From: a virus
Strand: one strand, 5' to 3'
Virus record (IMG/VR): IMGVR_UViG_3300046171_000314
Coordinates: 32,001-96,000 of that record
Length of the DNA: 64,000 bases
The notes below the pieces were generated by a model. That model was not told where the DNA came from, ran no database searches, and saw only the letters and a program-made list of their open reading frames with translations. Shown here one piece after another: positions 1,837-57,397 of this stretch (its first letter is position 1; each line of letters begins with the position of its first letter). The position numbers and the translations under genes are program-made.

Positions 1837-2297
1837 TTCTTAAAGCGATTGCTCTCACAGGTGTCACAAAGAGTTCTGTGCCACCCTTTGGTACGATGCA
1901 CACCTTGATTACACCCACAAGATTCACAAGTAGTGGAGGACAAGTCTTCGGCATCTGAGAAGATGTCTCGAATGTGGTCATCACCCCCATCAAAGTAAAG
2001 CCGAAGTGTTCCAAACTTTTCCTTCACTTGTGTGAATTCAGGATAGAAAAGTATCTTACTCTCGTCACGTCCTTCATTGACAACTATCTTGTGCCATTGA
2101 TCTATGGTCATAACAGGAACGCCTGCTTTCTCTTGTTCCTGTATGTATGTTTCCACTTTCTCACAGGCTTGATAGATAATGTCGAACCACCCATCATCGC
2201 AAGCACAGCCCCAACACATAGCGGTGTGAGTCATTGGCAAGTCTTTCTGTCGAAACATCTTGGGGAATCGATCATAAAGTTCTTGCTGTCTTTTCAT
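1833..2297 (-). CDS. conserved phage hypothetical protein with C-terminal Zn finger
   Basis: QVKEKFGTLRLY motif plus CESCG...TLCDTC. Confidence 0.75.
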   Translation of the reverse strand: MKRQQELYDRFPKMFRQKDLPMTHTAMCWGCACDDGWFDIIYQACEKVETYIQEQEKAGVPVMTIDQWHKIVVNEGRDESKILFYPEFTQVKEKFGTLRLYFDGGDDHIRDIFSDAEDLSSTTCESCGCNQGVHRTKGWHRTLCDTCESNRFKN

Positions 2298-2779
2298 TAT
2301 CTTTTCTCGCCATCAAGAAAAGGAATCACATCGAGGCAAAAATCCTTGTAAAGTCGTTCTTTTATATCGGCAAGCCCTGCTGATTGGATGGCAGGAGCAT
2401 AGTCACTTTTATGCGTTTCCTCGAAGAAACTCTTCGGTGCGGTTATCGGAGTGTACTTAGAAGGAGATTCCCCCTTTGCCAACGTGTAGGGGGAAGTTGC
2501 ATACCAAAACTCTAATCCTGCTTTGTCTGCAAAAAACTCTGTAAGCGTTCCCATGATAGTATTTTTAAATATATCTCTACACTTACTAATCGCATCCTCA
2601 ACTTTCTTATTGAGATAAAATTTGCGGATGCTTCCAAGTTCTGCTTCAAAGGCTTTGTCTTTCTTTTCAGAGAGGGCTTGAAACAACTCCCACGCTTGGA
2701 GCATAGATTCACGATCTTGTGCCTTACAAGCCCTTACCCAAAGTTCTTTAATCTTTCTTTTATGAGAGTTCGTTAGCAT
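2297..2779 (-). CDS. helical-leader family protein (putative virion protein)
   Basis: N-term HKRKIKELW..A...DRESMLQAWELFQAL shared with neighbours. Confidence 0.75.
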   Translation of the reverse strand: MLTNSHKRKIKELWVRACKAQDRESMLQAWELFQALSEKKDKAFEAELGSIRKFYLNKKVEDAISKCRDIFKNTIMGTLTEFFADKAGLEFWYATSPYTLAKGESPSKYTPITAPKSFFEETHKSDYAPAIQSAGLADIKERLYKDFCLDVIPFLDGEKR

Positions 2780-2782
2780 TAT

Positions 2783-3202
2783 CTAGTAGCCCCCATCTTT
2801 GTAGGGAATTTCTTCGTAAGCAAGGGCTTTATAGAGTTCGTCTACTTGTTTTATCATAGGGCTTTTTTTCATTTCTTTGGCAACCTGTGCGAACAGAAAA
2901 TCAATCGAGTCTTTATAGTTCTCACTATCATTCGGAAAAGCATCGTGAAACAACATTGCACTATCCTCAGTGTACTCTACAATTTCCTTTTTCATAATTT
3001 TAAGAACCGCCTGTTCAATATTGGATGCCCATTCAATGGCGGATTCATTTCTAATTCGTCTAAGTTTTTGTTCTAACTTTTTGTCAGTAGGATCAATGGC
3101 TTGAAACAACTCCCAAGCCTGAATGAGGTCAGCCCTATTTCGCTTTTCAAGCCCCTCTATCCAAAGAGATAGGAGTTTGTCTTTCTGATCTTTTGTTAGC
3201 AT
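2783..3202 (-). CDS. helical-leader family protein (putative virion protein)
   Basis: N-term QKDKLLSLW..G...NRADLIQAWELFQAI; C-term EIPYKDG resembles VIPFLDG of 2297-2779. Confidence 0.75.
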   Translation of the reverse strand: MLTKDQKDKLLSLWIEGLEKRNRADLIQAWELFQAIDPTDKKLEQKLRRIRNESAIEWASNIEQAVLKIMKKEIVEYTEDSAMLFHDAFPNDSENYKDSIDFLFAQVAKEMKKSPMIKQVDELYKALAYEEIPYKDGGY

Positions 3203-3226
3203 TGATATCTCCTGTATAAGGTTCTC

Positions 3227-3637
3227 TTACATATAAGGGGTCGGGATAATATCTCGAAAGAACCGTTTCTCTTCGTCTTTATTAAGGGCATCTATGAAAC
3301 GAGACATTTGTTGCGAAAACTTATCTGTTACTTCTTTTTTCATATGGGATTCTCGGTAATCGTGGTATCCGTACCAATTTCCTGCGATAACCATACTCCC
3401 CCAAGAGTCCCCATCAGGGTTTAGATAGAAGAGAGCCATCACAAGTTCTTTGTACTTTTTTTCCCACTTTGCCATCCAAGCATCCCAAATTTCAAAGGAT
3501 AGTTCGTGTATTTCTTCTAAGGTTAATCCATCTTTTCCAAGTGCTTGATTCAACTGCATAGCCTGTGAAGCAAGAGAGCGATCATTTTTTTTATAGGCAT
3601 CAAAGAACAACCTTTCGAGTTTCTTTTTATCTGACAT
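3227..3637 (-). CDS. helical-leader family protein (putative virion protein)
   Basis: Start MSDKKKLERLF...DRSLASQAMQLNQAL after GGAG RBS. Confidence 0.75.
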   Translation of the reverse strand: MSDKKKLERLFFDAYKKNDRSLASQAMQLNQALGKDGLTLEEIHELSFEIWDAWMAKWEKKYKELVMALFYLNPDGDSWGSMVIAGNWYGYHDYRESHMKKEVTDKFSQQMSRFIDALNKDEEKRFFRDIIPTPYM

Positions 3638-3672
3638 TTTTTTACTCCCGTAATAAACTACAAACCACATAG

Positions 3673-3687
3673 TATAGAAGGACTATT
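3673..3687 (-). promoter_or_regulatory. putative phage late promoter (RATAAT-N4-YTATA class)
   Basis: AATAGT-CCTT-CTATA upstream of the 3637/3202/2779 cluster. Confidence 0.6.
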
Positions 3688-3723
3688 GGTTGGTATAGTG
3701 TTTTCTAAAAAGAGGCTCACCAA

Positions 3724-4979: not shown

Positions 4980-5561
4980 CTAAAAGAAATTGTTGATTGC
5001 TTTCGCAATGTATGCGATGTCTTTGCGATAATCTCCTGAAAGTTCACTCTTGGTTACGATATCGCCACCCTTTGCACCATCGTTGTATACCAACCAATCT
5101 GTATTTGGGTTCTCGTTAAGAGAAACTTGTTGCGAATCAAAGGGCTTGCCCCATTGATTCCTGTCTGCACCTTCTTCGTTCCATATCCGATACGCATGCT
5201 CAAAGTATTGAACTACCCACTTTCTTCCGAGAAGTTTAGCAATATCTTTGGCAACTTTATCCCAATTCGTTTCTATGCTGTCCCACCACATAATTATTTT
5301 CTTAACATCAAGTTCGAGTTCAAACTCCCCTTTCACATAAGCGGTGTCTCCTTTAACGACAACCTTAGTAGCCCCCATATACCCAAACCCATCTAAGATA
5401 TCGAGAAGAACAGAATCAATGCTTGCGTTCAAGTCTGCCTCATCTTCATATTCGATAGGATATGGTTTGAAGAATCCCGAACTTGCTTGCTTGTTGAGAA
5501 CATCTCTGATTTCATTGAGTTCTGCGAGTATTCGCTTTCGTGCTTGCTTAGATAATTTCAT
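4980..5561 (-). CDS. putative virion-internal protein with KQA-S leader
   Basis: MKLSKQARKRILAELNEIRDVLNKQAS leader; late motif at 5587-5601. Confidence 0.65.
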   Translation of the reverse strand: MKLSKQARKRILAELNEIRDVLNKQASSGFFKPYPIEYEDEADLNASIDSVLLDILDGFGYMGATKVVVKGDTAYVKGEFELELDVKKIIMWWDSIETNWDKVAKDIAKLLGRKWVVQYFEHAYRIWNEEGADRNQWGKPFDSQQVSLNENPNTDWLVYNDGAKGGDIVTKSELSGDYRKDIAYIAKAINNFF

Positions 5562-5586: not shown

Positions 5587-5601
5587 TATAGGAAAATTAT
5601 T
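5587..5601 (-). promoter_or_regulatory. putative late promoter
   Basis: AATAAT-TTTC-CTATA. Confidence 0.65.
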
Positions 5602-5905: not shown

Positions 5906-6470
5906 AGTTTGGAAACGGAAAAAGGGTACAGACCTCAATGCAAAGTTAAACAACAGCCACCATCATACAGGGGCATTGACCGAGTGTTATTTCAGAGAAC
6001 TTGATGTACAACTCGTCAAGTTCATTGAAGAATCGGACAGTGTTGTTGGGTGCTTTGCTTGGCTCACAAATCAGAAGGTAATGAAAGCCCTTGTGGAAAA
6101 GCCCTGTTGTATGGTTCTCCAAAATGAATCTTGGCTCAATAAGAAAGGAGGTCTTGCTGTCAAGACACGCAATATGTACTCCGAACTCAGAGCAAGCAAA
6201 GATAAGTTCAAGGTCGATGGACAAGACATAGAAAAGGACATCTATGTTTGTGGGATGATTTCACACCCACAGAATATGCACCACAAGTTCGCTGTTCGTA
6301 TTGGGAAAGAGGGCACACCACAATCTGTTTGGACAGGCTCGTTCAATCCAACAACAAACGGAAACCAATCAATTGAAAATGCCCTCGTGATTCACAATGA
6401 GGAAGCGGCAAGGGCATACATACAAGAGTTCTTGCAAGTTCGAGATATCAGCAAACCCCTCAAAATCTAA
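5895..6470 (+). CDS. phospholipase D-family (HKD) nuclease-like protein
   Basis: AWLTN, MHHKFAV and VWTGSFNPT..NGNQSIEN motifs. Confidence 0.8.
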   Translation: MARKVWKRKKGTDLNAKLNNSHHHTGALTECYFRELDVQLVKFIEESDSVVGCFAWLTNQKVMKALVEKPCCMVLQNESWLNKKGGLAVKTRNMYSELRASKDKFKVDGQDIEKDIYVCGMISHPQNMHHKFAVRIGKEGTPQSVWTGSFNPTTNGNQSIENALVIHNEEAARAYIQEFLQVRDISKPLKI

Positions 6471-6973
6471 GAGTTGGGGTTCGGGTTCTCCGCCACCATC
6501 TTCTTGGCTATCTCTTTGAGTTTCTTTTCTTGCTGTTGCTCTCGGATAATAAGAAGGATCTCGTCTGTGTCTTTGTCGATCTCAACCAATGTTGTTTGGA
6601 TAGATTTTTCAACTCTATCAAGACCACTCTTTACATCATCTACGGTATCCCCAACCTCTGTTATTCGGATAATGGAGGATGACTCCATTCCCTCCAACCG
6701 TTGAACGGAATCGGTCAAGCCTTTGATGGCATCTTTGAGTTCTATCAAAAGAGTGTCTTTTTGGGTTTGGTATGTTTGTATGACTTTATCATACCTAGCC
6801 CTAATCATCTCTTCGTTGTCTTTATTATCCTTTCGCAACTTTTCAATACTTTCAAGAAACTTATCTTGCAGAGCATCCATCCGCTTTGTTCCTTGCAAGT
6901 AGTTCCAAATCATAAAAGCGAGGAACAGACCTGCCATTCCGTAATCAATTAATGCTGTGAACACTGAATCCAT
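6467..6973 (-). CDS. single-TM coiled-coil membrane protein, holin-like
   Basis: N-terminal TM (YGMAGLFLAFMIW) then coiled coil; late motif at 7004-7018. Confidence 0.5.
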   Translation of the reverse strand: MDSVFTALIDYGMAGLFLAFMIWNYLQGTKRMDALQDKFLESIEKLRKDNKDNEEMIRARYDKVIQTYQTQKDTLLIELKDAIKGLTDSVQRLEGMESSSIIRITEVGDTVDDVKSGLDRVEKSIQTTLVEIDKDTDEILLIIREQQQEKKLKEIAKKMVAENPNPNS

Positions 6974-7003: not shown

Positions 7004-7018
7004 TATAAATAGATTATC
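7004..7018 (-). promoter_or_regulatory. putative late promoter
   Basis: GATAAT-CTAT-TTATA. Confidence 0.6.
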
Positions 7019-7122: not shown

Positions 7123-8047
7123 CTACCTTGCCAAGTCAATTTTTATAGCATCAGGAGCAATCTTTTTGGCGGCTTTCAGAACACCAATCACTGCATCATC
7201 ATACTCATATCCATAGGTCTTACAGAAAGCGAAGTCTTGTATTCCTTTTGAGAGATAAAAGTCTTCTCCAACATCTCCCAAAGAACCATTAAACAAAATA
7301 TAGTCATTTTTCAATTCGGGCTTGCCTTTTCCATTTCTGCCTCCAACCCAAAAGTCACCTCCATCAAAGGTGAGGATAGTCTTGGCTTCACGAAGAATTT
7401 TACTCCACTCTTTATCTGAGAAATCCCTACTCATATTCCAATAGTGCGTTCGACCTGCGGTGAGGTATCTTTGGGCAACACGATAAGAAGAAGGCTTCTT
7501 TGATGCCAATCGTATTTGAGGGGGCATTACTTGCACACCTCTCTGACTAATCTCAGGAGAAATCACACAAGCAGGTCTTCGAACCAAGTAGTTGGGGCCA
7601 CTTCTCATACCAAACCTTGTAAAACTGTTCCACAGACATAACACGAGTTGTTTCCATTGGGTTGGGCATATTCGGGTCTGCGATAGACACTTGTGTCAGG
7701 TCGTTAGACACAGAGTACACGACACTTGCGTGCGACCAATCACGACCTTCAGGGTTATAGGCAATGATTACAGGAAGCCCTCTGCTAGTCCATTCCTTCA
7801 ACTGCTCAATGTTGCAAGGGGCTGTCAGGGTGGCTCTCTTACCAAAGTGTTGTGTGGCGGCTACAACCTGCTCCCAAGTTGCCCCTTGCATAGGGCGAGC
7901 ACCCATCACTTTATTGACTTCTTCCTCTGTGAGATCCATACCAAGAGCATTAAGGCACATCATAAGCGAGCAAGGAACACAGGTATATTGGGTTCTTTGT
8001 CTTACAGGTGTCACCAAAGCCTCAGTTATGTAAGATTGAAATTCCAT
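7123..8047 (-). CDS. C39-like cysteine peptidase fused via RVAxxY tag to a second domain; one +1 frameshift near 7595
   Basis: RQRTQYTC (Q/C), WSHASVV (H), IADPN (D); removing one C from TGGCCCCAAC joins ORFs 7553-8140 and 7123-7644 (YEKWPNYLVRRPAC); 924 nt after correction. Confidence 0.75.
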
Positions 8048-8081: not shown

Positions 8082-8096
8082 TATAAAGCAATTATT
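8082..8096 (-). promoter_or_regulatory. putative late promoter
   Basis: AATAAT-TGCT-TTATA. Confidence 0.6.
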
Positions 8097-8717: not shown

Positions 8718-8732
8718 AATAATTTGCCTATA
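8718..8732 (+). promoter_or_regulatory. putative late promoter
   Basis: AATAAT-TTGC-CTATA, identical to 38013-38027. Confidence 0.7.
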
Positions 8733-9015: not shown

Positions 9016-9036
9016 GGCGAGCAAGAACATCACGAG

Positions 9037-11382
9037 TTGCGTGATAATGGTGAATGGGAACATTACTTTGAAGATTGGGAAAAAGAATTAGGAATACAGG
9101 ATATGCGAAAACAAGCAAGCAGCGATGAAAAGGAACTTCGGAATATTTTCCGTTTGTTGCAACAACAGTTCGGCTCTGCCAATCGATGGAATCAATCGGG
9201 CTTTGAAGATCAATATGTTTCTATCGAAAAAGGAATACTACTGTTCTCTTACACAACAGGTCTTCGTGGAGAGGACTTAGATAACTCCGACTTAGAAGAT
9301 GATATCCGAATAGACAATAAAAAACAGGTCGAAAAGTTTTTGAAGTCAAAGGGCTATGACTTTGTTCTTGAATGCACAAACCCTTATTGTGATACCTTCA
9401 TGCTGACCTTGAAAGGCAAAGAGTGGATGAAAAAATACAACCCCAAGTATGCCAAGCAAGCAAAAGATGAGTGTTCCGACAAGAATAAAACAATGGAATA
9501 TGTCAAATGCCGAGCCGAGAAGATGGAGAAGGAACAAGGGTATCCTGTAGATAAAGCCTTCGCTACCGCTTGGTCAATCGCCTGTAAGCACAAGAAACTG
9601 CCTGACTCAAAAGAACACTGTCAAAAGAAACCTTCTGAATACTTTCCTAAAAAGAAAAAAGCATCCAATGGAGAAATCAATATGAAAAAATTAACTGCCA
9701 ACGACTTGATGTCCTCTGAGGACTATCAAGAAATACTCGCTGAAGAAATGACAGCACGGTTTGAAAAAGGTAAGCCTGCCGACCCAACTGAAAATATGTC
9801 TCCCGAACAAAAAGAAGAGTGGGAAGCCCAAAAGGAAAAGAACAAAGACAACTTCAAGAAGGCAGGCAAAGGTTTGTCCGAGAACGAGATGTTAGATCTC
9901 CTTGATGAATTGGGGTACTCCACAGAAGATTTTGAAGATGATGCCAAACTCCTTAGAGAGTATGCTTCTAATGAAGGGTATGAACAAAAGGGAGACAAGT
10001 TCCATAAAATCAAAGGCAAGAAAGCCGATGACTTGATGTCCGCAGAAGATTTTGAAGAAGTGCTTGCAGGGCATACTCCTGAGTCGTTCAAGAAAATGAT
10101 GAAAGATAATCCTGAACTTGCAAAGAAGTTTAAAGATGAAGAAGTCAATAAAGACAATTACGAAGAAAAATTGAAAGGCAAGAAAGCAGGACAATCTGTT
10201 CGTGAAAGTGAGATGGATATCGGTACTGTTTATGTTGGAACTTTCGGTCACCAAACTTGGCACTTCAAGCCCACCGCTGCGGCTGCTAAGAGCGGCAAGG
10301 TCAAAGGGTTGATAATGGGCTATGGGGAGAAGAAACCCAAGACCGCTTTCATTGGAAAGAAGACAGGTTATGATGGGGTCAAGTGGGAAGAAGCAAGTGA
10401 TGTTCCTGCTAAAATGAAATCTGCTGCAAGCATGACACCACAGCAAAAGAATATTCTGAAAACCATTTCTGAACTTGGCAAGAAGACTCCTCTTAGAAAA
10501 GCCTTTAAGTTGGATATCGAATACGCAACCTCTTGGGGCATTTCAGTAACCATTAAAGATGCCATCCCAAAGCATACAGTATCTAAATTAGATATCACCT
10601 ATATGAGCGAACCTGACTTTTTGTACTACACAATCATAGGTGCAAATGAAGAGGAAGAATACATAGAGGTGAGAAAAGCAGGAGCATTGATTGAAGCAGG
10701 GGATATGAGTGCCCTAGCAAATCCGCTTCTAAAAGGACTTAGAAAGTTCCAATCGAGATCTGCTGCCGAAGATATTATGGCAGGACACACGCCTGAATCC
10801 TTTAAGAAATGGTGCAAGGACAATCCTGATGCTTGTGCTGAGTGGGAAGAGAACACCGAGAAATATAAAGATGTCGTGAAAGACCAAAGTAAGAAAGCAT
10901 CTCCTATTGGAAAGGGCAAGATGGGTTATGTCGCCTTTTGGATAAAGGGTCGTGATGGTTCTGACCGAGTTGAAATTATGGCAGACAGTAAGTATGAGGC
11001 ACAACAGTTGGCAGTAGCATACTTTCAAAAAACCACACGCAAAAAAGTGAAAGGCTTTGATATCGCTATTGAACTTGCCGATACCCCTATCTCTACTCAA
11101 CACCTTGCAAACAAGGAAGCAGATTGTGGTTGTGAGGGATACCAAGTGTTCTATGTTCAACCTGAGCAACACGAACACTTTGATGCTTACGAGCCTGAAT
11201 ACTTTGCTCCTGAGCCTGAGCCTTATTCGCCACTAGATATGTCTATGTACGAACAAATGTTGGGCTTGCCTCGATTTGCGACACAACAAAAGATCGCTGA
11301 TGCCGAGCAATTAATAAAAGATAATGATGCCCTGTTGGAAGTGCTAGAAGCACAGACCGACATGATCAATAAACTATTTTAA
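9037..11382 (+). CDS. modular polyprotein-like putative internal head protein
   Basis: 781 aa; many K-x-A-[S/G/D/N] junctions; repeated DLMSxED and AGHTPESFKK..KDNP modules. Confidence 0.7.
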   Translation: MRDNGEWEHYFEDWEKELGIQDMRKQASSDEKELRNIFRLLQQQFGSANRWNQSGFEDQYVSIEKGILLFSYTTGLRGEDLDNSDLEDDIRIDNKKQVEKFLKSKGYDFVLECTNPYCDTFMLTLKGKEWMKKYNPKYAKQAKDECSDKNKTMEYVKCRAEKMEKEQGYPVDKAFATAWSIACKHKKLPDSKEHCQKKPSEYFPKKKKASNGEINMKKLTANDLMSSEDYQEILAEEMTARFEKGKPADPTENMSPEQKEEWEAQKEKNKDNFKKAGKGLSENEMLDLLDELGYSTEDFEDDAKLLREYASNEGYEQKGDKFHKIKGKKADDLMSAEDFEEVLAGHTPESFKKMMKDNPELAKKFKDEEVNKDNYEEKLKGKKAGQSVRESEMDIGTVYVGTFGHQTWHFKPTAAAAKSGKVKGLIMGYGEKKPKTAFIGKKTGYDGVKWEEASDVPAKMKSAASMTPQQKNILKTISELGKKTPLRKAFKLDIEYATSWGISVTIKDAIPKHTVSKLDITYMSEPDFLYYTIIGANEEEEYIEVRKAGALIEAGDMSALANPLLKGLRKFQSRSAAEDIMAGHTPESFKKWCKDNPDACAEWEENTEKYKDVVKDQSKKASPIGKGKMGYVAFWIKGRDGSDRVEIMADSKYEAQQLAVAYFQKTTRKKVKGFDIAIELADTPISTQHLANKEADCGCEGYQVFYVQPEQHEHFDAYEPEYFAPEPEPYSPLDMSMYEQMLGLPRFATQQKIADAEQLIKDNDALLEVLEAQTDMINKLF

Positions 11383-11395
11383 GAGGATATTATCA

Positions 11396-12313: not shown

Positions 12314-12322
12314 GAAAAATTT

Positions 12323-13096: not shown

Positions 13097-13114
13097 AAAT
13101 GAATAGGAGAATCT

Positions 13115-13690
13115 ATGAGAAAACGACTTACTTGGAAAAAGAAAGCCACCACCAACACAGATCAGTTTGTTGAAAAACAAGCAGGATCAGGAATGTATGG
13201 CTCAACCAAAGCAATCGAGAGTTCTGTTCTTGCTAGTGTCCGTAAAATACAAAAGAGAGCCGATAAAATCGCAAAGGCGTTGTACAAGAAAAATGCAAAG
13301 ACCGCACAGTTCTTGGCAACACACTCAAAGCGTTCTAAGTCTTCCTCTGCAAAAGTGATTATGGATGCGATGGCGAATCTCGGACCTAAGTTCGCTGCTG
13401 ACAAAACAGCAGGACACGGAATGTATGGATACGAATCGAAAGTAGCCGCACTTTGTCTTGCAGGTTGCACAGAACTTAAGCAATATGTCGGTGAGGTCGT
13501 GTCCGACCTGCACAGAAGAAAAGCCGCAAAGCACGCCAATGTTATGTCCTTCTTGAAAACTCACAAGAAGGAAGCCAAGTGTGATTGTTCTTCAATGATG
13601 CTTTCTTACTACCCTGATGCGAGTACCAAGTTCGCTAGCAACACCCCCAAGACCGTAAGCGATTGGATTAAATGGGAGGATTGGAAATGA
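13115..13690 (+). CDS. putative virion protein with internal duplication
   Basis: Two repeats KxAG.GMYG...FLxTH.K..K; KFAA/KFAS junctions. Confidence 0.7.
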   Translation: MRKRLTWKKKATTNTDQFVEKQAGSGMYGSTKAIESSVLASVRKIQKRADKIAKALYKKNAKTAQFLATHSKRSKSSSAKVIMDAMANLGPKFAADKTAGHGMYGYESKVAALCLAGCTELKQYVGEVVSDLHRRKAAKHANVMSFLKTHKKEAKCDCSSMMLSYYPDASTKFASNTPKTVSDWIKWEDWK

Positions 13691-14265
13691 ATCAAAAAGA
13701 CAAATTACTGACCCTTGCTCGCCATGCCCGTAATAGTCGTGATTGGGAAACCCTTGAACAAGTGAAAATGCTCAATGAAACCTTGAATCTACTCTCCGAA
13801 AATGAAGAGGGTCTTCTTCATTGGGGTGTTTATGCTAAGTGGATAGCCCTTGCTATGAACTCAAACTTTTTCCACCACCTACGAGATTACAAGAAATACA
13901 ACTTGGGTGTGACCTTTTCAAGTGCAGGACAAGTCCTTGTAAGAGAAATTGTAGATCCCGACAAGGCTAAAAAGTTTTATGACTTAGGGTATGACATTAT
14001 CGAACTACAATTTGTTGCTTCCAACGTTATTCCTGAAGAATATCTTAGACGAGATTGGGATGACAAGATACTCGATGAGATAAGCGAAATTGAGAGTAAT
14101 GTAAAAGAAGCGGTCTCTACTTTTATGTCTGATATTGAGCAATTTGCGGAAACCTACGGGTGGATGAAATGTCGGCAAACAAAAATCTATGTTTCTTCTC
14201 GAAGGGAGTATGGCACGAATATAGTTCTCGAAACGGGAATCTCTCTCAAAGAAACCCTCAAATAG
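13687..14265 (+). CDS. helical-leader family protein
   Basis: MNQKDKLLTLARHARNSRDWETLEQVKMLNETL. Confidence 0.75.
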   Translation: MNQKDKLLTLARHARNSRDWETLEQVKMLNETLNLLSENEEGLLHWGVYAKWIALAMNSNFFHHLRDYKKYNLGVTFSSAGQVLVREIVDPDKAKKFYDLGYDIIELQFVASNVIPEEYLRRDWDDKILDEISEIESNVKEAVSTFMSDIEQFAETYGWMKCRQTKIYVSSRREYGTNIVLETGISLKETLK

Positions 14266-14269
14266 GAGA

Positions 14270-14848
14270 TTGGAAGTGAAAAATAAATTAATAGAATTGG
14301 CGAGGGGTGCGAAAGAGCAAAGAGACAAAGGTATCTTGGAGCAAGCACAGATGCTGAATGAGTCTTTGAATCTGTTTTCAGAAGAAGAGAAGATAAAATA
14401 CTTCATTTGGGATGTAGATAAGCAATGGGAAGCCTCAGGGTATCAAAGAAAACTCGAAGCCCTTGCAAAGAAGTTCGCAACAGGAGAAAGGGAGGTCATC
14501 TTTTATGGTGACTATGATAATACAGCAGAATTAGAAATAACTCTGAGACTCTATGATTATGTTCCTGATAAAGTCATTGACACATATATGGAAAATCCCA
14601 AATATGGAATGTATGAACTAGAAGAAACGAAACTTTGGGAGAAGACAGGGGCAAGGTTAAAAAAACAAGCCGAAGGATTTATCAAAGATATTGTTTCGGT
14701 GTTTAGTAATTCCGATCTCTATGATATAAAGTTCAAAGGAAGTAGGATTAGACCACGAAATATCCTTGTAAGGCGTGTCGAAGGATACTATGCAGGAGAT
14801 TATGACGCAGGGCTTTTATTATCTTTCGATATTGAGATTAAGGAATAG
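14270..14848 (+). CDS. helical-leader family protein
   Basis: KNKLIELARGAKEQRDKGILEQAQMLNESL. Confidence 0.75.
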   Translation: MEVKNKLIELARGAKEQRDKGILEQAQMLNESLNLFSEEEKIKYFIWDVDKQWEASGYQRKLEALAKKFATGEREVIFYGDYDNTAELEITLRLYDYVPDKVIDTYMENPKYGMYELEETKLWEKTGARLKKQAEGFIKDIVSVFSNSDLYDIKFKGSRIRPRNILVRRVEGYYAGDYDAGLLLSFDIEIKE

Positions 14849-15621: not shown

Positions 15622-16236
15622 TTATGACCAAAACCAACGAGCCAATAAAATACCTGCTGCTATGTCACTTGGGTAGTGCATACCCCCAACCATTCGAGTG
15701 CGAGAAATAAGAGCGGCTACTCTCATCCACTCATCTGCAAGTTCAGGATACAGGTTCGTGTAGTACAACCTCAACATTTCTGCCTGTGTTGTATGTCCTG
15801 AGGGATAAGACGCTGACCAAGCCGAAATACTATCCATCGGATAAAGTTCGACATCGTAGTAAGAAGCAAGTTGAAAGGGGCGTGCTCTATTGAAAGAGTA
15901 CTTCAAAAAAGCAACCACCTCTGCCACCCTATCACTGATGTTTTCAACCACAGGAATCATTGGGTCTATTTGATACTCGGCACAAACCTCATAGAACATA
16001 GAGGTCAGGTCTTCGTCTGCTTTTACGATGAGGGGTCTCATATAAGGTCGCTCTTCTTCTTGCAGAAGATACAAGTACTCTAATTCGGACAGGGTTTCTT
16101 CTGAACTATTTCGAGGGTGTTCAGGTAGTTGGGGGATATCCATTCCGCTTTCAACAAACTTATCGAGCAGTTCTTCGTGTGAGTCAGAAGGATTCCCATA
16201 GCCCAAGATATCATCGATGTACATTTGCCTCTCCAA
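15622..16236 (-). CDS. PAP2-superfamily phosphatase/haloperoxidase-like protein
   Basis: KYSFNRARP, SYPSGH and SRTRMVGGMHYPSD motifs. Confidence 0.85.
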   Translation of the reverse strand: MERQMYIDDILGYGNPSDSHEELLDKFVESGMDIPQLPEHPRNSSEETLSELEYLYLLQEEERPYMRPLIVKADEDLTSMFYEVCAEYQIDPMIPVVENISDRVAEVVAFLKYSFNRARPFQLASYYDVELYPMDSISAWSASYPSGHTTQAEMLRLYYTNLYPELADEWMRVAALISRTRMVGGMHYPSDIAAGILLARWFWS

Positions 16237-16249
16237 TAATGCCTCTATA
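16235..16249 (+). promoter_or_regulatory. putative late promoter
   Basis: AATAAT-GCCT-CTATA. Confidence 0.65.
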
Positions 16250-16282
16250 AAAATATAAAAGCATTATCGTGGAGGACGTTCT

Positions 16283-16633
16283 ATGAAAAACCCAAGCATA
16301 CAAAGAGTTGCCAACGCATACATCAAAGCCTCTTCTTTTGATATTGAGATGAGTACAGGTATGTGGAGTGATGGACAACAGTTCCTTAAGGCTATCAATA
16401 AAGAACTGAGTGCAGAGGGACTACCTGAGGTGTATCGAGTGGTGATTGACTCTCTGAAGGGATTCAATGGATATGAACTTATTCTTTCTTGGAAGGAGAG
16501 TTACGGTCAAGTAAAGAACACACAAATGTGCAATGTCATAAAGAACTATGCTGAAAAGAAATTTCCCACAAGCCTGTCGGTGCAGCCCTCAAAGATAACA
16601 GGCAGGGCACACTACAAAGTCATTTTGAAATAG
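16283..16633 (+). CDS. RVAxxY-tagged putative virion protein
   Basis: MKNPSIQRVANAYIKAS leader; GGAGG RBS. Confidence 0.7.
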   Translation: MKNPSIQRVANAYIKASSFDIEMSTGMWSDGQQFLKAINKELSAEGLPEVYRVVIDSLKGFNGYELILSWKESYGQVKNTQMCNVIKNYAEKKFPTSLSVQPSKITGRAHYKVILK

Positions 16634-17076: not shown

Positions 17077-17486
17077 GAGTTCTTATCGTCTCGCAACTTA
17101 TCAAGGTTGTCAAGATACGGTGGTGATTTGACTTTGTAATCCCAAAGCCAAGCCCATCGTTTTCTCGTTGCAAGATACTCTAAGTTAGAGTCATTGACAT
17201 ATGCCTCTTGTTCGGCTCGGATACAATAGTAGGAGATGTTCCCTTGCTTATGTATCAACAGACCAATGAACCAATCCCATAGATACACAAACCAAAAGCC
17301 AATAAAGAACAGGTCAAGGTATTGTTGGTAGTGAATGGTTTCGTGGTTGCGGAGTTTCTCATCCATCTCACCACGAGCGATAACGACAAAGCCTAACGTG
17401 ATAGCCCCAATGGTGATAGGGGATACCTTACTTAGCCACACAGGTATGCGACTATTCTCAATAAATATGGGTTTCCAATTTTTCAA
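17073..17486 (-). CDS. membrane protein with HExxH motif
   Basis: AITLG..., NHETIHYQQ, hydrophobic segment, EQEAY. Confidence 0.7.
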   Translation of the reverse strand: MKNWKPIFIENSRIPVWLSKVSPITIGAITLGFVVIARGEMDEKLRNHETIHYQQYLDLFFIGFWFVYLWDWFIGLLIHKQGNISYYCIRAEQEAYVNDSNLEYLATRKRWAWLWDYKVKSPPYLDNLDKLRDDKNS

Positions 17487-17899
17487 AATACAAATCCTCC
17501 ATCTGATCCCTCTTGGATTACATCAAAGGCATAATCCAAAAGACTCAAAATCTGTTTCTGTTGTTTTCCTATTAAGGATTGCATATCGACTATCAAATGA
17601 TTGATAGTGTTTTCGTAAATCTTCGCATCCCCAATGTATGATAAAAGAGTATCGTTCAAGGCGTTCTCAAAGTCAAATCTTGGTGCTACGGTGGAAGCGA
17701 TGTTCCACGCATCGTTTTCTGCGTGGTTACGTCTGACATTTAACAAATGTCGTTCAAAATCTAAATCTCGACCATCCTCAGAAAGAGCCTCTATAAGAGA
17801 AGCCACTTGCAAAAGAGCCTCTCGGTTTTTATTTTTTAGACCTCTTTTCCAAATGGTGAATAGTTTCTTTTTGTGTTCTTGACTAATTGGTTTTTGCAT
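17483..17899 (-). CDS. helical-leader family protein
   Basis: EHKKKLFTIWKRGLKNKNREALLQVASLIEAL. Confidence 0.75.
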   Translation of the reverse strand: MQKPISQEHKKKLFTIWKRGLKNKNREALLQVASLIEALSEDGRDLDFERHLLNVRRNHAENDAWNIASTVAPRFDFENALNDTLLSYIGDAKIYENTINHLIVDMQSLIGKQQKQILSLLDYAFDVIQEGSDGGFVF

Positions 17900-18427: not shown

Positions 18428-18601
18428 ATGGTGATAGATACGCAAGCAGATGACTTTTGGGCGTGGGTGAGTTTAGGTTGGGCACTGACCCTACTCGTAT
18501 GGCTGTTGATACTTTGGGAAATACGAAGACCCCCAAGCCCCTGTGATGGAATTTATTTTAGAGAAGCACACCTAAGATGTCTTTGGGAGCAAAGTAAATA
18601 G
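18428..18601 (+). CDS. small membrane protein
   Basis: GGAG RBS; TM WAWVSLGWALTLLVWLLILW. Confidence 0.55.
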   Translation: MVIDTQADDFWAWVSLGWALTLLVWLLILWEIRRPPSPCDGIYFREAHLRCLWEQSK

Positions 18602-18611
18602 TTTCTCTATA
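18597..18611 (+). promoter_or_regulatory. putative late promoter
   Basis: AATAGT-TTCT-CTATA. Confidence 0.65.
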
Positions 18612-18642: not shown

Positions 18643-19143
18643 ATGGCTCGTTCAGACAAAGAAAAGAAAGAAATATATGACAAGTGGAAAGGCTTGATCA
18701 ATATGAGCCAATCGGCTCTCGATGAATGGGCTAAGAATCCTGCTCGTTTGGAAGCCTCTCTCAATAGAGCGAAAGCCAAAGATGAGGGTGGGATTCAAAG
18801 TGGTCTTGATTCTCTCCACCGCATCAAAAGAAGAAAGTCCAAACCTGTCAAAGAATGGTCTGACCAAGATTACGACAATGCGGCTCAGGAGAATGGGTTC
18901 AATGGTCGTATGTTGGGCGGCAAGATTGGACAGCCTGTAGGTAGTACAGGAATGTCCAAGTGGGAAATCTCACTACGCAATTGGGGACACGACCCTGCAT
19001 TGAGTTCAAGCCCTGCTAACGCCAAGTATAAGGCTTGGAAGAAAGCAAACAAGGATGCTATTGCAAAGTCCAAAGCGAAAGCCAAGAAGAAAGCCTCTGT
19101 CGAAAGAGTTGCATATCAATATTTAATTTCTAGGAGCAGATAA
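18643..19143 (+). CDS. DUF3140-like protein with C-terminal RVAxxY tag
   Basis: INMS..AL.EW and WEISLRNWGHDP; ends KKKASVERVAYQYLISRSR. Confidence 0.7.
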   Translation: MARSDKEKKEIYDKWKGLINMSQSALDEWAKNPARLEASLNRAKAKDEGGIQSGLDSLHRIKRRKSKPVKEWSDQDYDNAAQENGFNGRMLGGKIGQPVGSTGMSKWEISLRNWGHDPALSSSPANAKYKAWKKANKDAIAKSKAKAKKKASVERVAYQYLISRSR

Positions 19144-24963: not shown

Positions 24964-24978
24964 AATAATTTGTCTATC
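24964..24978 (+). promoter_or_regulatory. putative late promoter
   Basis: AATAAT-TTGT-CTATC. Confidence 0.55.
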
Positions 24979-25016: not shown

Positions 25017-26513
25017 ATGAATTTCAAGAAAAAGGCTTTCAGCACAAAAGATAAATCGACCCTGATACGGACATTTATTAATGACCCAAATTTTGGGAAC
25101 TTGAGTAACTATCCTGATATTGTGAGTGCTACGGATTCCCAATTAGCGGAGATGTTTGACTACGTTGTTGTTCAAGGAAAAAGACAGTGGAAAACTGGAC
25201 CTTCAAATATGAACTCAAAGGAATGGACAGAAGAGATAGAGTCAAGGTTCTCCTATTATCTAAGTGGGCAAAACATCAATACGACTATTGATACAACAGT
25301 TGATGACCCCACCCAAATGATAAAAAATGTTCACAGACAAGACAATATTCTTGGGAGGAACATACAAGGTTATATCGGAAGTAAGCCTGCTAACGAGCAG
25401 CACGTAGGACAACTTGCCGCAGGGTTCATTAAGTTTATGGCATCTCGTGTAAAGGATATGCAGAAAAACCATAAGATTATGAGAAGGCACATCAAGAATG
25501 TCACAGAACTTGGTGGGAATACTGATGAAGATGGTGGGCTAGATATAGAAAATATGGCAGATGAAGCCGCTATGGGTGGAGGTCGAGCCACAGGACACAG
25601 GTACTTTTTAAGAAATTGGCACGACTACTACAAGTACTCATCAGAGGTACAACAAATCGGAGAAGCCATTGAAGGCATTGATAGTGTTTTTGTCGACTTG
25701 GTTCAAAATGCGATAGAGCCTGCGATCCTAAAGCAAACCTTCAAGGCAGGCGGTCTGACAATTGAAGAAGAGCGGTTCATCTTCTATGCAGGATTTGGAT
25801 TAGATTACTTCGTTCCTTTTTCAAGTGGATCATCTGAAAACCAAACTCAACAATTGGGGAATATGCGAATTGTTCCTCCTTTCAGAAAGCCCTCTGTGTA
25901 TGACCTTAGTTACTATTTGCTTTGTTCTGCTTTGAAGAGAAGTGGGATGACCTTAAAAGAATTCGGAGATGTTGAAGAGGTAGCAGGAAAAAAATCCAAA
26001 GGGAAGATGTCTGCTAGTGCGAACTATAAGAAATACTTGAAAGCAATAGAAATGGCATTCAATGGGGGGTCAGGAAAGCCTTATGATCAAGTCTATGGGA
26101 ACGCAGGAAAAACAGCCCAAACAACCGCTGCCAAAATAAAAAACACTAATCAATTTGAAGCGAAGGATTTGAACGGATTGCGAGCCATCATCACTAAGAA
26201 GATTGGGTCACAAGGACAGTTTGAGAAAGCGGCTTTCGAACTAACTCAATTCCACATTGAAATGGACGAGGATAAGTCTTATGCGGAATGGCTTCCTGAG
26301 GGCTTTGCTTCGAACTATCCAAAGTACGCAAAAGAACTACTCAAGCACTTTGAAACGTTAGATATAGGACTTACCATCCTTGCAAGTAAGAAAACAGCCT
26401 CTGCTGTTCGTGTTGCAAATGCTTATATGGATAAGTACAAGAACAATCGACTTATCCAACGAGTGGCTTACAAGCACTTGATGAATAACGCCAACCCCAA
26501 AATCAGTTTTTAG
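25017..26513 (+). CDS. RVAxxY-tagged large protein, possibly sigma-like
   Basis: AGGAG RBS before MNFKKKAF; ends KKTASAVRVANAY...IQRVAYKHL. Confidence 0.6.
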   Translation: MNFKKKAFSTKDKSTLIRTFINDPNFGNLSNYPDIVSATDSQLAEMFDYVVVQGKRQWKTGPSNMNSKEWTEEIESRFSYYLSGQNINTTIDTTVDDPTQMIKNVHRQDNILGRNIQGYIGSKPANEQHVGQLAAGFIKFMASRVKDMQKNHKIMRRHIKNVTELGGNTDEDGGLDIENMADEAAMGGGRATGHRYFLRNWHDYYKYSSEVQQIGEAIEGIDSVFVDLVQNAIEPAILKQTFKAGGLTIEEERFIFYAGFGLDYFVPFSSGSSENQTQQLGNMRIVPPFRKPSVYDLSYYLLCSALKRSGMTLKEFGDVEEVAGKKSKGKMSASANYKKYLKAIEMAFNGGSGKPYDQVYGNAGKTAQTTAAKIKNTNQFEAKDLNGLRAIITKKIGSQGQFEKAAFELTQFHIEMDEDKSYAEWLPEGFASNYPKYAKELLKHFETLDIGLTILASKKTASAVRVANAYMDKYKNNRLIQRVAYKHLMNNANPKISF

Positions 26514-33300: not shown

Positions 33301-34077
33301 TCAACTAACTAGGGCATGTCTTAGTTTATCTATTTCACGAAAAATGATTTTTCTCACCGCCTCTCTCGATAAAGAAAATTGTTGTGCAATTTTGTTCAAA
33401 GATTGAGGGGTTTCGCCTGTCAATCCGAAACGCTTTTTTATAATCTCTTGGTGTCTTTGATTGCTTAGTTTATCCAATGCCTCAAGCAGCAACCTTTTTT
33501 CTTCCTCTTCTAAGGTGTGGGATAAAGGATCTTGCACCTGATGATCGACAATAATATCTTTCAGCAGGAAATCTTCTGAGAGGGGTGTCTCTAAAGAGGT
33601 AGGTGGGGGTGGGATGAGGGATATTTGGTCATAATGTTTCTTAGAAATGGCTGTCATTGCCAAACAATCTTCTAAGGAAAACCCTTGTTTAATCATTGCT
33701 TCTATTTGTGAGCAGTGCTTCATTTGCTCTTTTCGATATTCAGGGATAGCAATCAAGTCCGAGTGACACCTCCTCATTGCTTGCTTAATCCACCAAGTTG
33801 CATAGGTTGAGAACCGAAAACCCTTTTCAGGGTCATACTTTTTTGTTGCAATCATCAAGCCGATGTTCCCCTCTTGGATGAGATCCTCAAGAGGGCTTGG
33901 GTTTCTCTTCACTTCTTTTTGAGCAAGAGAAACCACCAAACGGAGGTTTGAAACAATCATTTTCTCAAAGGATCTGACACACCCTTTCTGTATTTTTGTG
34001 CCAAGTTCTAACTCTTCTTTTGCAGACAAGAGTTTGTGGTTCTTCAGTGATTCTAAATACGAGTCAATATCATTCAT
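33301..34077 (-). CDS. RpoD/RpoS-like sigma-70 factor
   Basis: SNLRLVVSLA, DLIQEGNIGL, KYDPEKGFRFSTYATWWIKQA, RFGL...SLNKIA..LSREAVRKI. Confidence 0.95.
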   Translation of the reverse strand: MNDIDSYLESLKNHKLLSAKEELELGTKIQKGCVRSFEKMIVSNLRLVVSLAQKEVKRNPSPLEDLIQEGNIGLMIATKKYDPEKGFRFSTYATWWIKQAMRRCHSDLIAIPEYRKEQMKHCSQIEAMIKQGFSLEDCLAMTAISKKHYDQISLIPPPPTSLETPLSEDFLLKDIIVDHQVQDPLSHTLEEEEKRLLLEALDKLSNQRHQEIIKKRFGLTGETPQSLNKIAQQFSLSREAVRKIIFREIDKLRHALVS

Positions 34078-36777: not shown

Positions 36778-36801
36778 ATTGACCTCCGTTGTTGTCCCTT
36801 C

Positions 36802-38012: not shown

Positions 38013-38027
38013 AATAATTTGCCTATA
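38013..38027 (+). promoter_or_regulatory. putative late promoter
   Basis: AATAAT-TTGC-CTATA. Confidence 0.7.
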
Positions 38028-41860: not shown

Positions 41861-41861
41861 T

Positions 41862-47446: not shown

Positions 47447-47461
47447 AATAGTTTATTTATA
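47447..47461 (+). promoter_or_regulatory. putative late promoter
   Basis: AATAGT-TTAT-TTATA. Confidence 0.6.
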
Positions 47462-55523: not shown

Positions 55524-55633
55524 CAAATTTTATCTTGTTTTTCTGTGCGGTGTTCTTGTCTTTCCTTCTTTACTCAGGACTTTCTTACCTATACCACCGT
55601 TGGAAATGGGATCGATTTGGAAGAGATGATTAA
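55520..55633 (+). CDS. 37-aa membrane peptide
   Basis: GGAGG RBS, GTG start, hydrophobic FILFFCAVFLSFLLY. Confidence 0.45.
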   Translation: MTNFILFFCAVFLSFLLYSGLSYLYHRWKWDRFGRDD

Positions 55634-55672
55634 TATCTTTTGTTGTTTCGGTAGTTCTATCGGAGGTTATTT

Positions 55673-56641
55673 ATGAAACTTATATGGCGAACAGACATAC
55701 ACCTTTCTGACAAGACACCTGTGAGCAGGAAGGACAATTGGAAAGAAACAATATTTAAGAAGATTCAGCAGGTCGGAAAGATCGCAGAAAAACACGATGC
55801 AGTTGCTGTTCTAGATGGGGGTGACTTCTTCGATATCAAGTCGCCTTCACGGAACTCACACGAACTTGTTAGGGAAGTTCTCGATGTTCATAAGGAATAC
55901 CCTTGCCCTGTCTATGCGAATGTGGGCAACCACGATTGTGTATATGGTGATTATCAATTCTTGCCACAACAACCTCTTGGGGTTCTGTTCTCAAGTGGGT
56001 GTTTTCAAAGGCTCTATGACGAGCACGAGGTCACCTTTGAAAAAGATGGTGTCAAGGTTCGGGTTGTGGGCGTTCCCTATCACGGTGTTGAATATGATAT
56101 GGAAAGATTCAAAAGCATAAAGAAGGGGGACGAGGATTGGCTTGTCTGTATTGCCCACGTTCTTGCTTCTGAGAAAGGCGGTACAATGTTTGAGGGGGAG
56201 GATATCGTCAAGTATAGCGACTTGACCGATCTAGACCCTGATGTATTTTGTTTTGGGCATTGGCACAAGAATCAAGGGATTAAGAGTATCTCTCACACAA
56301 GACAACAATGGGTTGTGAACATAGGTTCTCTTTCAAGGGGTAGTCTCACACAGGACAACTTAGACCGAGTGCCTTGTGTGGCATTAATGGAATTCAATAA
56401 AGAGGGCATACATCTCATAGAGATACCTCTTGAGATAGAAGATGCTGAGGAGGTCTTTGACATTGAAAAACGATTACAAGAGCAGGTTCGTGAGGACACA
56501 ATGAATCAACTTGTTTCGAGCATACAAACGAAGTTAGAGTCTACACAAGGACTAGACCTTCGGTCTGCTGTCAAGGCATTAGATCTCCCTGATACAGTGA
56601 AGGAACGAGCCATCTCATATATAGAAAAAGTAGACCGATAA
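55673..56641 (+). CDS. sbcD: SbcD/Mre11-like nuclease
   Basis: TDIHL, GGDFFD, VGNHD, GHWH, NIGSLSR. Confidence 0.9.
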   Translation: MKLIWRTDIHLSDKTPVSRKDNWKETIFKKIQQVGKIAEKHDAVAVLDGGDFFDIKSPSRNSHELVREVLDVHKEYPCPVYANVGNHDCVYGDYQFLPQQPLGVLFSSGCFQRLYDEHEVTFEKDGVKVRVVGVPYHGVEYDMERFKSIKKGDEDWLVCIAHVLASEKGGTMFEGEDIVKYSDLTDLDPDVFCFGHWHKNQGIKSISHTRQQWVVNIGSLSRGSLTQDNLDRVPCVALMEFNKEGIHLIEIPLEIEDAEEVFDIEKRLQEQVREDTMNQLVSSIQTKLESTQGLDLRSAVKALDLPDTVKERAISYIEKVDR

Positions 56642-56651
56642 TCTCCCTATA
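56637..56651 (+). promoter_or_regulatory. putative late promoter
   Basis: GATAAT-CTCC-CTATA. Confidence 0.65.
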
Positions 56652-56687
56652 TTTTCATCTTCTTATGAACCATAGGAGAAATTTATT

Positions 56688-57032
56688 ATGTCTGATAAGA
56701 ATTTAAGAAAGAAACTAATACGCCTTGCTCATACAAACCCTGAACTCCGAAAGGACTTGCTTCCTTTGTTGAAAGAGGCTGCGGAAACTCCTAATGAATG
56801 GTTTGACGCTTTCAGTGATTGGTGGGGTGGTATTAAGAACAGCATCCTTGCTGACGATGATAATGAAGTTCGTAACTCTCTTGGTTGGGATCTTTATCAA
56901 ATTTGTGTTGGCTATGATCAAAGTTCGAAAAGTCGAAAGGATAATGCACAGAGGGCTATTGATCAGTTTTCTAAGCGTCTTATGAAAGAGATTGATGTTC
57001 TCAATAAAAAAGCAGATGACCTTAAAAAATAA
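56688..57032 (+). CDS. IRLAHxNPELR-leader putative virion protein
   Basis: MSDKNLRKKLIRLAHTNPELRKDLLPLLKEA then unique domain. Confidence 0.75.
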   Translation: MSDKNLRKKLIRLAHTNPELRKDLLPLLKEAAETPNEWFDAFSDWWGGIKNSILADDDNEVRNSLGWDLYQICVGYDQSSKSRKDNAQRAIDQFSKRLMKEIDVLNKKADDLKK

Positions 57033-57046
57033 GACTTGGGGAAAAA

Positions 57047-57397
57047 ATGTCAGACTTACGCAGTAAAATTATCCGTTTGGCTCACGCAAACCCTGAACTC
57101 CGCAAAGACTTGCTTCCCTTGTTGAAAGAGGCTGTTCCGATGGTATCGAACTATGACATAAATGGATACTTCAATAGCCCACAGGAATACCTTGATGCGG
57201 AAGAGGTTCTTTTCAAGAAGAGACTTATTATGGACAACACCAATTGGAATGACAGTGGATCGCAAACGGGTTCTTTTCTGTATGCGGTTTCCCCAAAGAA
57301 TGTTCGTAAGGTCGAACAGATTATTAAGAAAATGGGTGGCACGATTACAAGTAAGGTTGCTCGTGGCGAAGATGGACAAGAGATAGTAGCAAGATAG
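57047..57397 (+). CDS. IRLAHxNPELR-leader putative virion protein
   Basis: MSDLRSKIIRLAHANPELRKDLLPLLKEA then unrelated domain. Confidence 0.75.
   Translation: MSDLRSKIIRLAHANPELRKDLLPLLKEAVPMVSNYDINGYFNSPQEYLDAEEVLFKKRLIMDNTNWNDSGSQTGSFLYAVSPKNVRKVEQIIKKMGGTITSKVARGEDGQEIVAR

Follow-up and report, generated by a model that had tools for sequence, protein, structure and literature searches.

Two portable peptide tags on late proteins of an uncultured huge phage related to Bacillus phage G, and their possible use as head-loading addresses

Short terminal peptides that bind inside an HK97-fold shell are known from the C-terminal tail of the HK97 prohead protease and from the cargo-loading peptides of encapsulins, the latter of which stay attached. 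In phage T4, the internal proteins IPI-III, Alt and gp24 share a capsid-targeting sequence (CTS), which is cleaved off by gp21, the prohead protease (Mullaney & Black 1996, reviewed in PMC5694885 and PMC9024508). This sequence is 10–20 aa long, is found at the N-terminus only and is cut after Glu (L/I-x-E). The head and ejection proteins of phiKZ/SPN3US carry long propeptides that are cut at A/S-x-E by gp175/gp245 (PMC5694885, PMC10052503), and SPN3US gp245 additionally auto-cleaves its own C-terminus (PMC5694885). In phage P1, the first 30 residues of DarB suffice to load TetR-mCherry, and the Dar proteins are without a consensus signal (PMC9024508). Here, we describe two short peptides, termed tag A and tag B, which are shared by otherwise unrelated genes of a 64,000-nt stretch of viral DNA (hereafter, the window) representing bases 32001–96000 of the 147,878-bp IMG/VR contig IMGVR_UViG_3300046171_000314 (CheckV completeness 56%). 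An initial annotation of this window had proposed a plug-in system in which about 20 genes, united by one promoter class, three peptide tags and K-x-A junctions, encode payloads that are packaged, cut and injected.

Based on the sequence evidence set out below, tags A and B may represent address peptides that load late accessory proteins into the assembling head and that are trimmed at K/R-x-A by a protease of the phage G gp19 type, a proposal for which we consider the balance to be about even. Each tag would dock its carrier onto a component of the assembling procapsid, the carrier would become enclosed, and the prohead protease would then trim the tag at the K/R-x-A-[S/G/A] junction that separates it from the payload; at the same motif, this protease would presumably also cut the C-terminal tail of a scaffold-like protein as well as its own N-terminus and C-terminal domain. 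The resemblance to the T4 CTS lies in a short peptide shared by unrelated late proteins, a border consensus, expression with head genes and the dock-enclose-trim logic (here proposed), while the differences lie in the two unrelated tags, their N-terminal, internal and C-terminal positions and multiple copies, the K/R-x-A-[S/G/A] junction and the gp19-homologous protease. The phiKZ/SPN3US system is similar in that it belongs to giant phages with many packaged proteins, among them the diverged paralogues gp53/gp54 with identical N-termini, and the auto-cleavage of gp245 is paralleled here by the RVAS site that is conserved ahead of the protease's C-terminal domain; however, the propeptides of phiKZ/SPN3US exceed 100 aa, are family-specific rather than portable and are cut at another motif by a protease of another family, and no sequence relationship to that system was found. 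The P1 DarB signal is comparable in being a terminal signal of approximately 30 residues, near the size of tag B, on a large accessory protein, whereas here one consensus occurs in thousands of proteins and the P1 model does not involve cleavage. At its C-terminus, the protease of this phage has a conserved helix (E-x-R-V-x-V-R-V-G-x-L-L-S) with a loose likeness to tag A and to the first helix of tag B; that this tail is a diverged tag is suggested by eye, but the resemblance is not significant (tag B profile against the protease, E=9.8) and the idea is retained as a lead only. The features that set the proposed system apart from those described are the two unrelated tags, their use at either terminus and in multiple copies, the junction motif and the protease family. 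For phage G itself, the omics paper reports no cleavage or targeting data.

A total of 220 genes were called on the contig by a heuristic procedure and start codons are therefore approximate; genes and proteins (e.g. g84324, 80256 and 56688) are named by window coordinates, values above 64,000 falling past the window end. The portal protein is 67% identical to that of an uncultured 485-kb phage, 39% to that of Tunturiibacter phage Tunturi_5 and 27% to that of Bacillus phage G, while a full-length comparison of the major capsid protein (MCP) with phage G gp27 gives 39% identity and the catalytic core of the prohead protease is 37% identical to that of phage G gp19. Given the homology of these three proteins to those of phage G, the phage is assigned by sequence to the lineage of Bacillus phage G (Donellivirus-related) as an uncultured huge phage. 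The right half of the window holds a replication and recombination cluster (ribonucleotide reductase, Dda-like helicase, UvsX, SbcC, SbcD and an exonuclease), and the head module, with terminase, portal, protease (84890) and MCP (88293), is located just past the window end.

Tag B is a 28-residue peptide with the consensus MSDKxLRxKIIRLAHxxPELRKxLLPLL, the pattern of which reads as two helices broken by a proline. It is present at the N-terminus of two window genes (56688 and 57047) and three genes elsewhere on the contig, and the payloads of the two window genes are unrelated, their similarity stopping at the tag end. The initial annotation was correct both in recognising this tag and in placing some of the genes inside the replication cluster, the tag B pair lying between sbcD and the exonuclease gene. 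An exhaustive profile search (E<=1e-3) retrieved 3,370 clusters at 50% identity, comprising proteins of 61–1,780 aa in which the tag is N-terminal, internal or C-terminal and occurs in one to seven copies; in multi-copy proteins the tags alternate with K/E/D-rich linkers and the last copy often forms the protein end. Of 1,909 proteins obtained in a second search almost none has a Pfam domain, the payloads that could be annotated being zinc ribbons, a ParB-like domain, LRV repeats, GNAT, DUF2958 and DUF7007. All database carriers are metagenomic, many being encoded on contigs of 140–530 kb, and single huge-phage genomes carry 6–15 copies, often as tandem arrays. Neither phage G nor Tunturi_5, the cultured relatives, contains tag B, and it is likewise missing from G004, G005 and G006, large sister genomes whose MCP and protease are the same. 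Pfam returned no match for ten window carriers or for the multi-tag proteins, PHROGs gave only sub-threshold matches to tag B (E ~3e-3), and no description of the tag was found in Pfam, PHROGs or the searchable literature. Its identification as an LRV/HEAT repeat unit was rejected, the LRV matches of metagenomic protein P0185 falling on the payload and not on the tag. Tag B is conserved as a protein across phages of very different GC content, and the five contig copies display 6–14 synonymous against 3–7 non-synonymous codon differences, with nucleotide identities of 58–81% at amino acid identities of 70–87%. As synonymous differences outnumber non-synonymous ones and nucleotide identity becomes random right after the tag, selection acts on the peptide.

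Tag A corresponds to a predicted helix core of seven residues, R-V-A-x-R-Y/W-L. The pattern R[VIL]A.[RKNQA][YWH][LIM] was matched at 13 sites in the contig proteins, against 0.1 in shuffles, so that this tag of the initial annotation is likewise real, its window carriers being 7123 (minus strand), 16283, 18643 and 25017. Tag A and tag B (five contig proteins and >3,000 clusters) thus share with the T4 CTS the property of being a short peptide common to unrelated proteins, and depart from its exclusively N-terminal position in also occurring C-terminally, internally, at both ends and in tandem. Tag A lies 5–15 residues from the N-terminus, up to approximately 35 residues from the C-terminus or internally, is present at both ends of two proteins, and is carried twice in tandem at the C-terminus of 25017; RVAQRYL of 7123 is at residue 43 of the long open reading frame and at residue 16 from an internal Met, and may thus be N-terminal rather than internal. 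The carriers are mostly basic and the codons vary among sites. In approximately 0.9 Mb of related phage DNA, 19 distinct sites were detected (2.4 expected), 11 of which are terminal, while orthologues differ in their tags: 97417 gains a C-terminal copy in locus L033, 98468 loses its N-terminal copy and 99781 retains degenerate copies only. The back-translated DNA pattern occurs at eight sites in this phage, four in a close relative (G002), zero to three in other relatives and at none in phage G or Tunturi_5. Strict tag A matches among the database tag B carriers numbered 0 (0.16 expected), a near-match in metagenomic protein P0167 excepted. This 866-aa protein combines a tag A-like N-terminus (SSRVTDRWLQK) with four copies of tag B and two ParB/sulfiredoxin-like DGHHRW domains, so that both tags can coexist on one polypeptide. 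Taken together, tags A and B are very probably portable docking tags for some shared partner.

The third tag of the initial annotation, tag C, could not be maintained as a member of the same system. A shared N-terminal helical region of approximately 40 residues does exist in ten contig proteins, six of which are encoded in the window; the pattern as originally written has no exact match, and the region is not portable. Database matches were limited to 15 proteins, all of 109–200 aa and all from this phage or near relatives, in which the region is invariably N-terminal and the carriers are acidic. No significant association with the class I promoter described below (4/10 versus 38/194, p=0.13) and no K-x-A junction were found at tag C. 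The proposed use of the tags at N-terminal, internal and C-terminal positions consequently applies to tags A and B and not to tag C, which by its sequence and distribution is taken to be the conserved N-terminal region of a small, lineage-specific acidic family outside the tag A/B system.

The promoter motif RATAAT-N4-YTATA (RATAATNNNNYTATA), here termed class I, occurs at eight exact sites in the window (0.17 expected) and 15 on the contig, all of which are intergenic and oriented with the next gene, 14 being located 26–46 nt 5' of a start codon; the promoter class suggested initially is therefore real. Its spacer is rigid (N3 and N5 variants each yield one site) and, when one mismatch is allowed, 34 promoter-proximal genes are found on the contig. 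As the motif precedes the tail sheath homologue 113524, the minor tail homologue 108004, head gene 80256 (the first after the portal gene) and several genes around the capsid gene, class I is classified by the genes it precedes as the late, structural promoter class. In contrast to T4, in which the late promoter has TATAAATA at -10, the late motif of this phage is bipartite; the T4-type sequence is not enriched (8 versus 16 expected) and is suitably placed at one site. Class I is presumably read by a phage-encoded sigma factor, the product of 33301–34077 being a candidate reader of a phage-specific promoter class. At least two further classes are present. Class II, ACGTAAA-N10-14-(T)CGTATAG (core CGTAT), is found at 13 sites (0.07 expected), all intergenic, mostly in the left arm of the contig (window -31000 to -10000) and also at 22731–23660, 36219–36560 and 36598–36830; the sites lie 27–85 nt 5' of start codons, and downstream of them are long T/C-rich leaders with a GGAGGTCA ribosome-binding site. 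Class III, T[TC][CG]GGTAT, is an extended -10-like motif located 26–66 nt 5' of the helicase, sbcC, exonuclease and 62790 genes (plus-strand sites at window positions 48208, 54400, 57453 and 62757; also at 43669 and 18345) and is probably an early or middle class that uses the host sigma factor.

Tags and class I promoters are associated across the contig, as had been predicted: 18 of 26 tagged genes are first or second in a class I unit compared to 38 of 194 untagged genes (p=6e-7), with 9/11 for tag A and 5/5 for tag B, and no tagged gene is found behind a class II or III motif. The estimate of about 20 genes was also fair, the window holding 12 tagged and approximately ten promoter-only genes. 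The tag B cassette at 56637–57397 is under class I control while the adjoining sbcC and exonuclease genes are under class III. In close relatives the exact class I motif again precedes tag B genes and, in GC-richer or distant relatives, a variant defined post hoc (G[GCT]TAG-N5-[CT]TAT[CA]) precedes 8/79 tag B genes against 9/1842.

With regard to the junctions, the initial annotation had placed [K/R]-x-A-[S/G/D] at the tag/payload borders, a claim that stands for tag B and part of the tag A copies; as written, the motif is not enriched proteome-wide (89 versus 74). [KR]-x-A occurs one to two residues past LLPL[LI] in 156 of 278 (56%) non-C-terminal copies of the wider tag B family against 4.7% of random positions (p ~1e-129), while 40 C-terminal copies end 1–5 residues after the tag without [KR]-x-A. 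Of 15 tag A copies, 4 have K-x-A-[SGDT] no more than 14 residues upstream (p=7e-4), and three C-terminal copies in this phage are preceded at a distance of 2–7 residues by K-[KT]-A-S, which is found seven times proteome-wide (2.2 expected). In locus L089, a topoisomerase IB orthologue has K-D-A-S ahead of its C-terminal tag A. The junction thus differs from the x-E of the T4 CTS.

The same motif was evaluated in the head proteins of 21 protease-centred head modules using local 30-residue shuffles and permuted-motif controls. [KR].A[SG] was enriched 5.0-fold in the scaffold-like protein (encoded between the protease and MCP genes), 3.3-fold in the protease and 3.0-fold in the g69026 family, for all of which permuted motifs remained at or below approximately 1.5-fold, while the MCP orthologues contained 0 sites against 5.2 expected. 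No excess was observed in the g87595, portal and terminase families, and that of the g80256 family was discarded as not motif-specific. The conserved columns fall at domain borders, namely PQPKKASxG and VSKEAS just before the conserved C-terminal tail (LSxLWxSAPD[IV]S) of the scaffold-like protein, while the protease has V-RTAS close to its N-terminus and, at 85% of its length and ahead of the C-terminal domain, VV-RVAS-SD. Such a distribution is expected of a prohead-protease substrate motif. In phage G, which lacks the tags, gp19 has three sites (0.44 expected) located at both ends, near residues 9, 248 and 274, gp7 has six (1.1 expected) and the MCP none. With sites conserved where domains of the scaffold-like protein and of the protease meet, and with none in the MCP, phage G included, K/R-x-A-[S/G] fits a maturation-protease site at which cleavage is predicted. 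The protease is without a Pfam family match.

Further links to the head are provided by g84324, the gene of which is directly upstream of the protease gene in every head module examined and all orthologues of which contain [SA]-x-x-RVA-x-A-[FWY]-[VI]-[KR]-K-x-[LI]-Y-W-A, a tag A-like segment, between a Pro/Gly-rich linker and a zinc ribbon. Among the orthologues of g80256, that of L069 has an internal tag A and that of L089 a C-terminal one that follows a charged linker, and tag B genes are located between the scaffold-like gene and the MCP gene in L043 and just after the MCP gene in L051, L052 and L059.

A number of observations weigh against the loading of tagged proteins into the head. The cultured relatives phage G and Tunturi_5 are without either tag, and tag B is absent from the unbiased sample of 21 protease-centred head modules as well as from the sister genomes; the tags are therefore optional, and no conserved receptor can consequently be deduced from co-distribution. 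The internal tag B arrays with charged linkers are unlike what a simple cleavable leader predicts, and characterised prohead proteases (T4, phiKZ/SPN3US) cut after Glu and not Ala (PMC5694885). The junction motif was counted over orthologues, which are not independent of one another; for this phage taken singly the junction excess is modest, and two of the three junction sites have drifted in the scaffold-like protein of the phage itself. Structure prediction settles nothing: in the AlphaFold2 model of g84324 the flanking domains have a predicted local distance difference test score (pLDDT) of approximately 80 and the RVA helix is isolated at 38–54, while the model of 68418 (mean pLDDT 44.5) is too poor for use. 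Zinc ribbons, ParB-like, LRV, GNAT and DUF payloads do not suggest ejected effectors and, since almost all payloads are unannotated and the annotated domains do not point to such a function, the payload injection proposed in the initial annotation is unsupported. A broader form of the head-loading proposal is held more tentatively, and as a whole we lean against it. In this form, the two portable tags, a 7-residue helix and a 28-residue hairpin that function at either protein end or in multiple copies, would dock late proteins into the procapsid as a general plug-in cargo system of huge phages in this lineage, a gp19-type prohead protease specific for K/R-x-A|S/G would release the payloads, tag A would mimic the helix of the core head protein g84324, and proteins with several tags and charged linkers would form multivalent hubs within an internal core.

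The main rival to head loading is that both tags dock to a shared partner other than the capsid (DNA, a phage compartment or filament, a host hub or the membrane), K-x-A representing a helix end and linker start. Both tags are basic, tag B is repeated between charged, probably disordered linkers in a sticker-spacer-like manner, tag B genes are found genome-wide in variable islands that are mostly outside head modules, and sister phages with the same head genes lack the tags; yet such docking would leave unexplained why the junction motif marks the borders of the scaffold-like tail and the protease and is avoided in the MCP, why a tag A-like helix is conserved in g84324 and why promoter-proximal tagged genes are all of class I and none of class II or III. 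We therefore regard it as rather unlikely, if the most serious of the alternatives. Less probable still is targeting to the head without cleavage, in which K-x-A-[S/G] would reflect a structural or linker preference and the carriers would stay intact as internal or decoration proteins. Encapsulin-type loading peptides can likewise be placed in various positions, as the tags are at either terminus and internally, and C-terminal tag B copies need no junction, but enrichment in the scaffold-like, protease and g69026 families depends on the order and register of the motif, which is situated exactly at domain borders of proteins usually processed by prohead proteases. That the shared ends are merely the conserved heads of duplicated, fast-diverging paralogue families is a reading that holds for tag C, with its 15 acidic, N-terminally marked matches; for tags A and B it is contradicted and very improbable, as copies are found at either end of a protein, in its interior and in tandem, thousands of carriers join them to unrelated known domains, and orthologous bodies gain and lose them. 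Finally, promoter and leader could constitute a DNA-level recombination handle for swapping downstream open reading frames, the peptide being functionless, as tagged genes form cassettes and tandem arrays in which similarity ends abruptly past the tag. This explanation was rejected and retains hardly any credibility, since differences within tag B are mostly synonymous, tag A codons are varied and tag B is conserved as a protein across GC contents.

The features of the window on which this analysis is based are listed in Table 1.

Table 1. Coordinates of tagged genes, class I promoters, sigma factor genes and putative processed proteins in the window.
Feature	Coordinates	Strand	Length (aa)	Details
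Tag A gene	7123..7608	-		RVAQRYL at nt 7462-7482; second gene of the unit under the 8082-8096 promoter
Tag A gene	16283..16633	+	116	N-terminal RVANAYI, residues 8-14 (nt 16304-16324)
Tag A gene	18643..19143	+	166	C-terminal RVAYQYL, residues 155-161 (nt 19105-19125); KKAS-VE before the tag
Tag A gene	25017..26513	+	498	C-terminal RVANAYM (nt 26409-26429) and RVAYKHL (nt 26460-26480); KTAS-AV before the tags
Tag B gene	56688..57032	+	114	Tag at residues 1-31 (nt 56688-56780), ending LLPLL-KEA; payload unannotated
Tag B gene	57047..57397	+	116	Tag at residues 1-29 (nt 57047-57133), ending LLPLL-KEA
Tag C member	2297..2779	-	160	
Tag C member	2783..3202	-	139	
Tag C member	3227..3637	-	136	Class I motif (3673-3687, one mismatch) immediately upstream, unlike the other tag C genes
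Tag C member	13687..14265	+	192	Acidic
Tag C member	14276..14848	+	190	Acidic
Tag C member	17483..17899	-	138	No class I promoter
Class I promoter	5587..5601	-		Before untagged gene 4980-5561
Class I promoter	7004..7018	-		Before untagged gene 6467-6973
Class I promoter	8082..8096	-		Before 7553-8047 and tag A gene 7123
Class I promoter	8718..8732	+		Heads the operon from 8761 to 14848
Class I promoter	16235..16249	+		Before tag A gene 16283
Class I promoter, divergent	16254-16268	-		Drives PAP2 gene 15622-16224; overlaps the 16235..16249 site
Class I promoter, one mismatch	18597..18611	+		AATAGTTTCTCTATA; 32 nt 5' of tag A gene 18643
Class I promoter, one mismatch	24964..24978	+		39 nt 5' of tag A gene 25017
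Class I promoter	38013..38027	+		Before untagged gene 38060-38929
Class I promoter, one mismatch	47447..47461	+		Before 47511-48122, inside the replication cluster
Class I promoter	56637..56651	+		GATAATCTCCCTATA; 37 nt 5' of tag B gene 56688
Weaker sigma-like gene	26786-27610	-		
Phage sigma-70-family factor	33301..34077	-		phrog_351, E=1.5e-47
Unannotated protein	9037..11382	+	781	Top [KR].A[SG] excess on the contig (6 versus 1.15; K-K-A-S/G sites)
Basic protein	13115..13690	+	191	Starts MRKRLTWKK; three K-x-A-[SG] sites
Untagged protein	47511-48122		203	Two K/R-R-A-S sites (2 versus 0.21)

Judged by its junction motifs, the product of 9037–11382 is a candidate processed late protein, and that of 47511–48122 may be another. 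The N-terminus of the 13115 product is similar to that of the scaffold-like protein 86326 (L012:8327-9391; MRRRRLTWKK) and of its L043 orthologue (MSRRRLTWN), and may constitute a fourth shared terminal motif, linking the late operon at 8761–14848 to head assembly. At 16235–16268, class I motifs on opposite strands overlap as a near-palindrome beside the gene for the PAP2-family phosphatase (PF01569, E=5e-15), while a class I motif with one mismatch precedes an amidohydrolase-family gene (36898–37908), near which a PhoH-like ATPase gene is located (39349–40314), such auxiliary genes being found among the late units.

Within the head module, g80256 (L011:17257-18414; contig 112256–113413; window 80256–81413) is preceded by class I and encodes a protein in which a topoisomerase IB catalytic core (PF01028, E=4e-24) is fused to a C-terminal part resembling a Cys/His peptidase; relatives have it within proteins of 981–2,130 aa or as a 331-aa protein ending in tag A. 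By analogy with poxviruses, this suggests that the head-module topoisomerase IB is a virion-packaged enzyme. The head-module protein 83915 (L012:5916-6302; window 83915–84301) has a poly-Glu N-terminus, an Arg-rich C-terminus and the sequence FDPNDIGE...ESDEAYMNDF...ELRSKQ, of which FDPxxI...ESDE[AP]YM is also present between the tag B copies of the metagenomic multi-tag proteins P0002 and P0003. The 290-aa MCP (L012:10294-11166; loci L038–L089) is 85–94% identical among phages whose other head proteins are far more diverged (portal 60–84%, protease 40–64% and scaffold-like protein 35–57% identity), and the constraint on the shell protein is thus unusually strong.

Even if the head is not the destination of the tagged proteins, tag B, found in thousands of proteins, is a module not described before, and a first regulatory map of this phage is provided by its three promoter classes. 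If head loading is correct, the tags would furnish a sequence code that predicts virion-borne proteins among the unannotated products of uncultured huge phages, a prediction of where the phage G-type prohead protease cleaves (K/R-x-A before S/G), and short tags that work at either terminus and that could be used to load foreign proteins into large capsids. Should the tags moreover form a general plug-in system, this would constitute a new capsid-targeting code and the first cleavage specificity for the gp19-type protease family.

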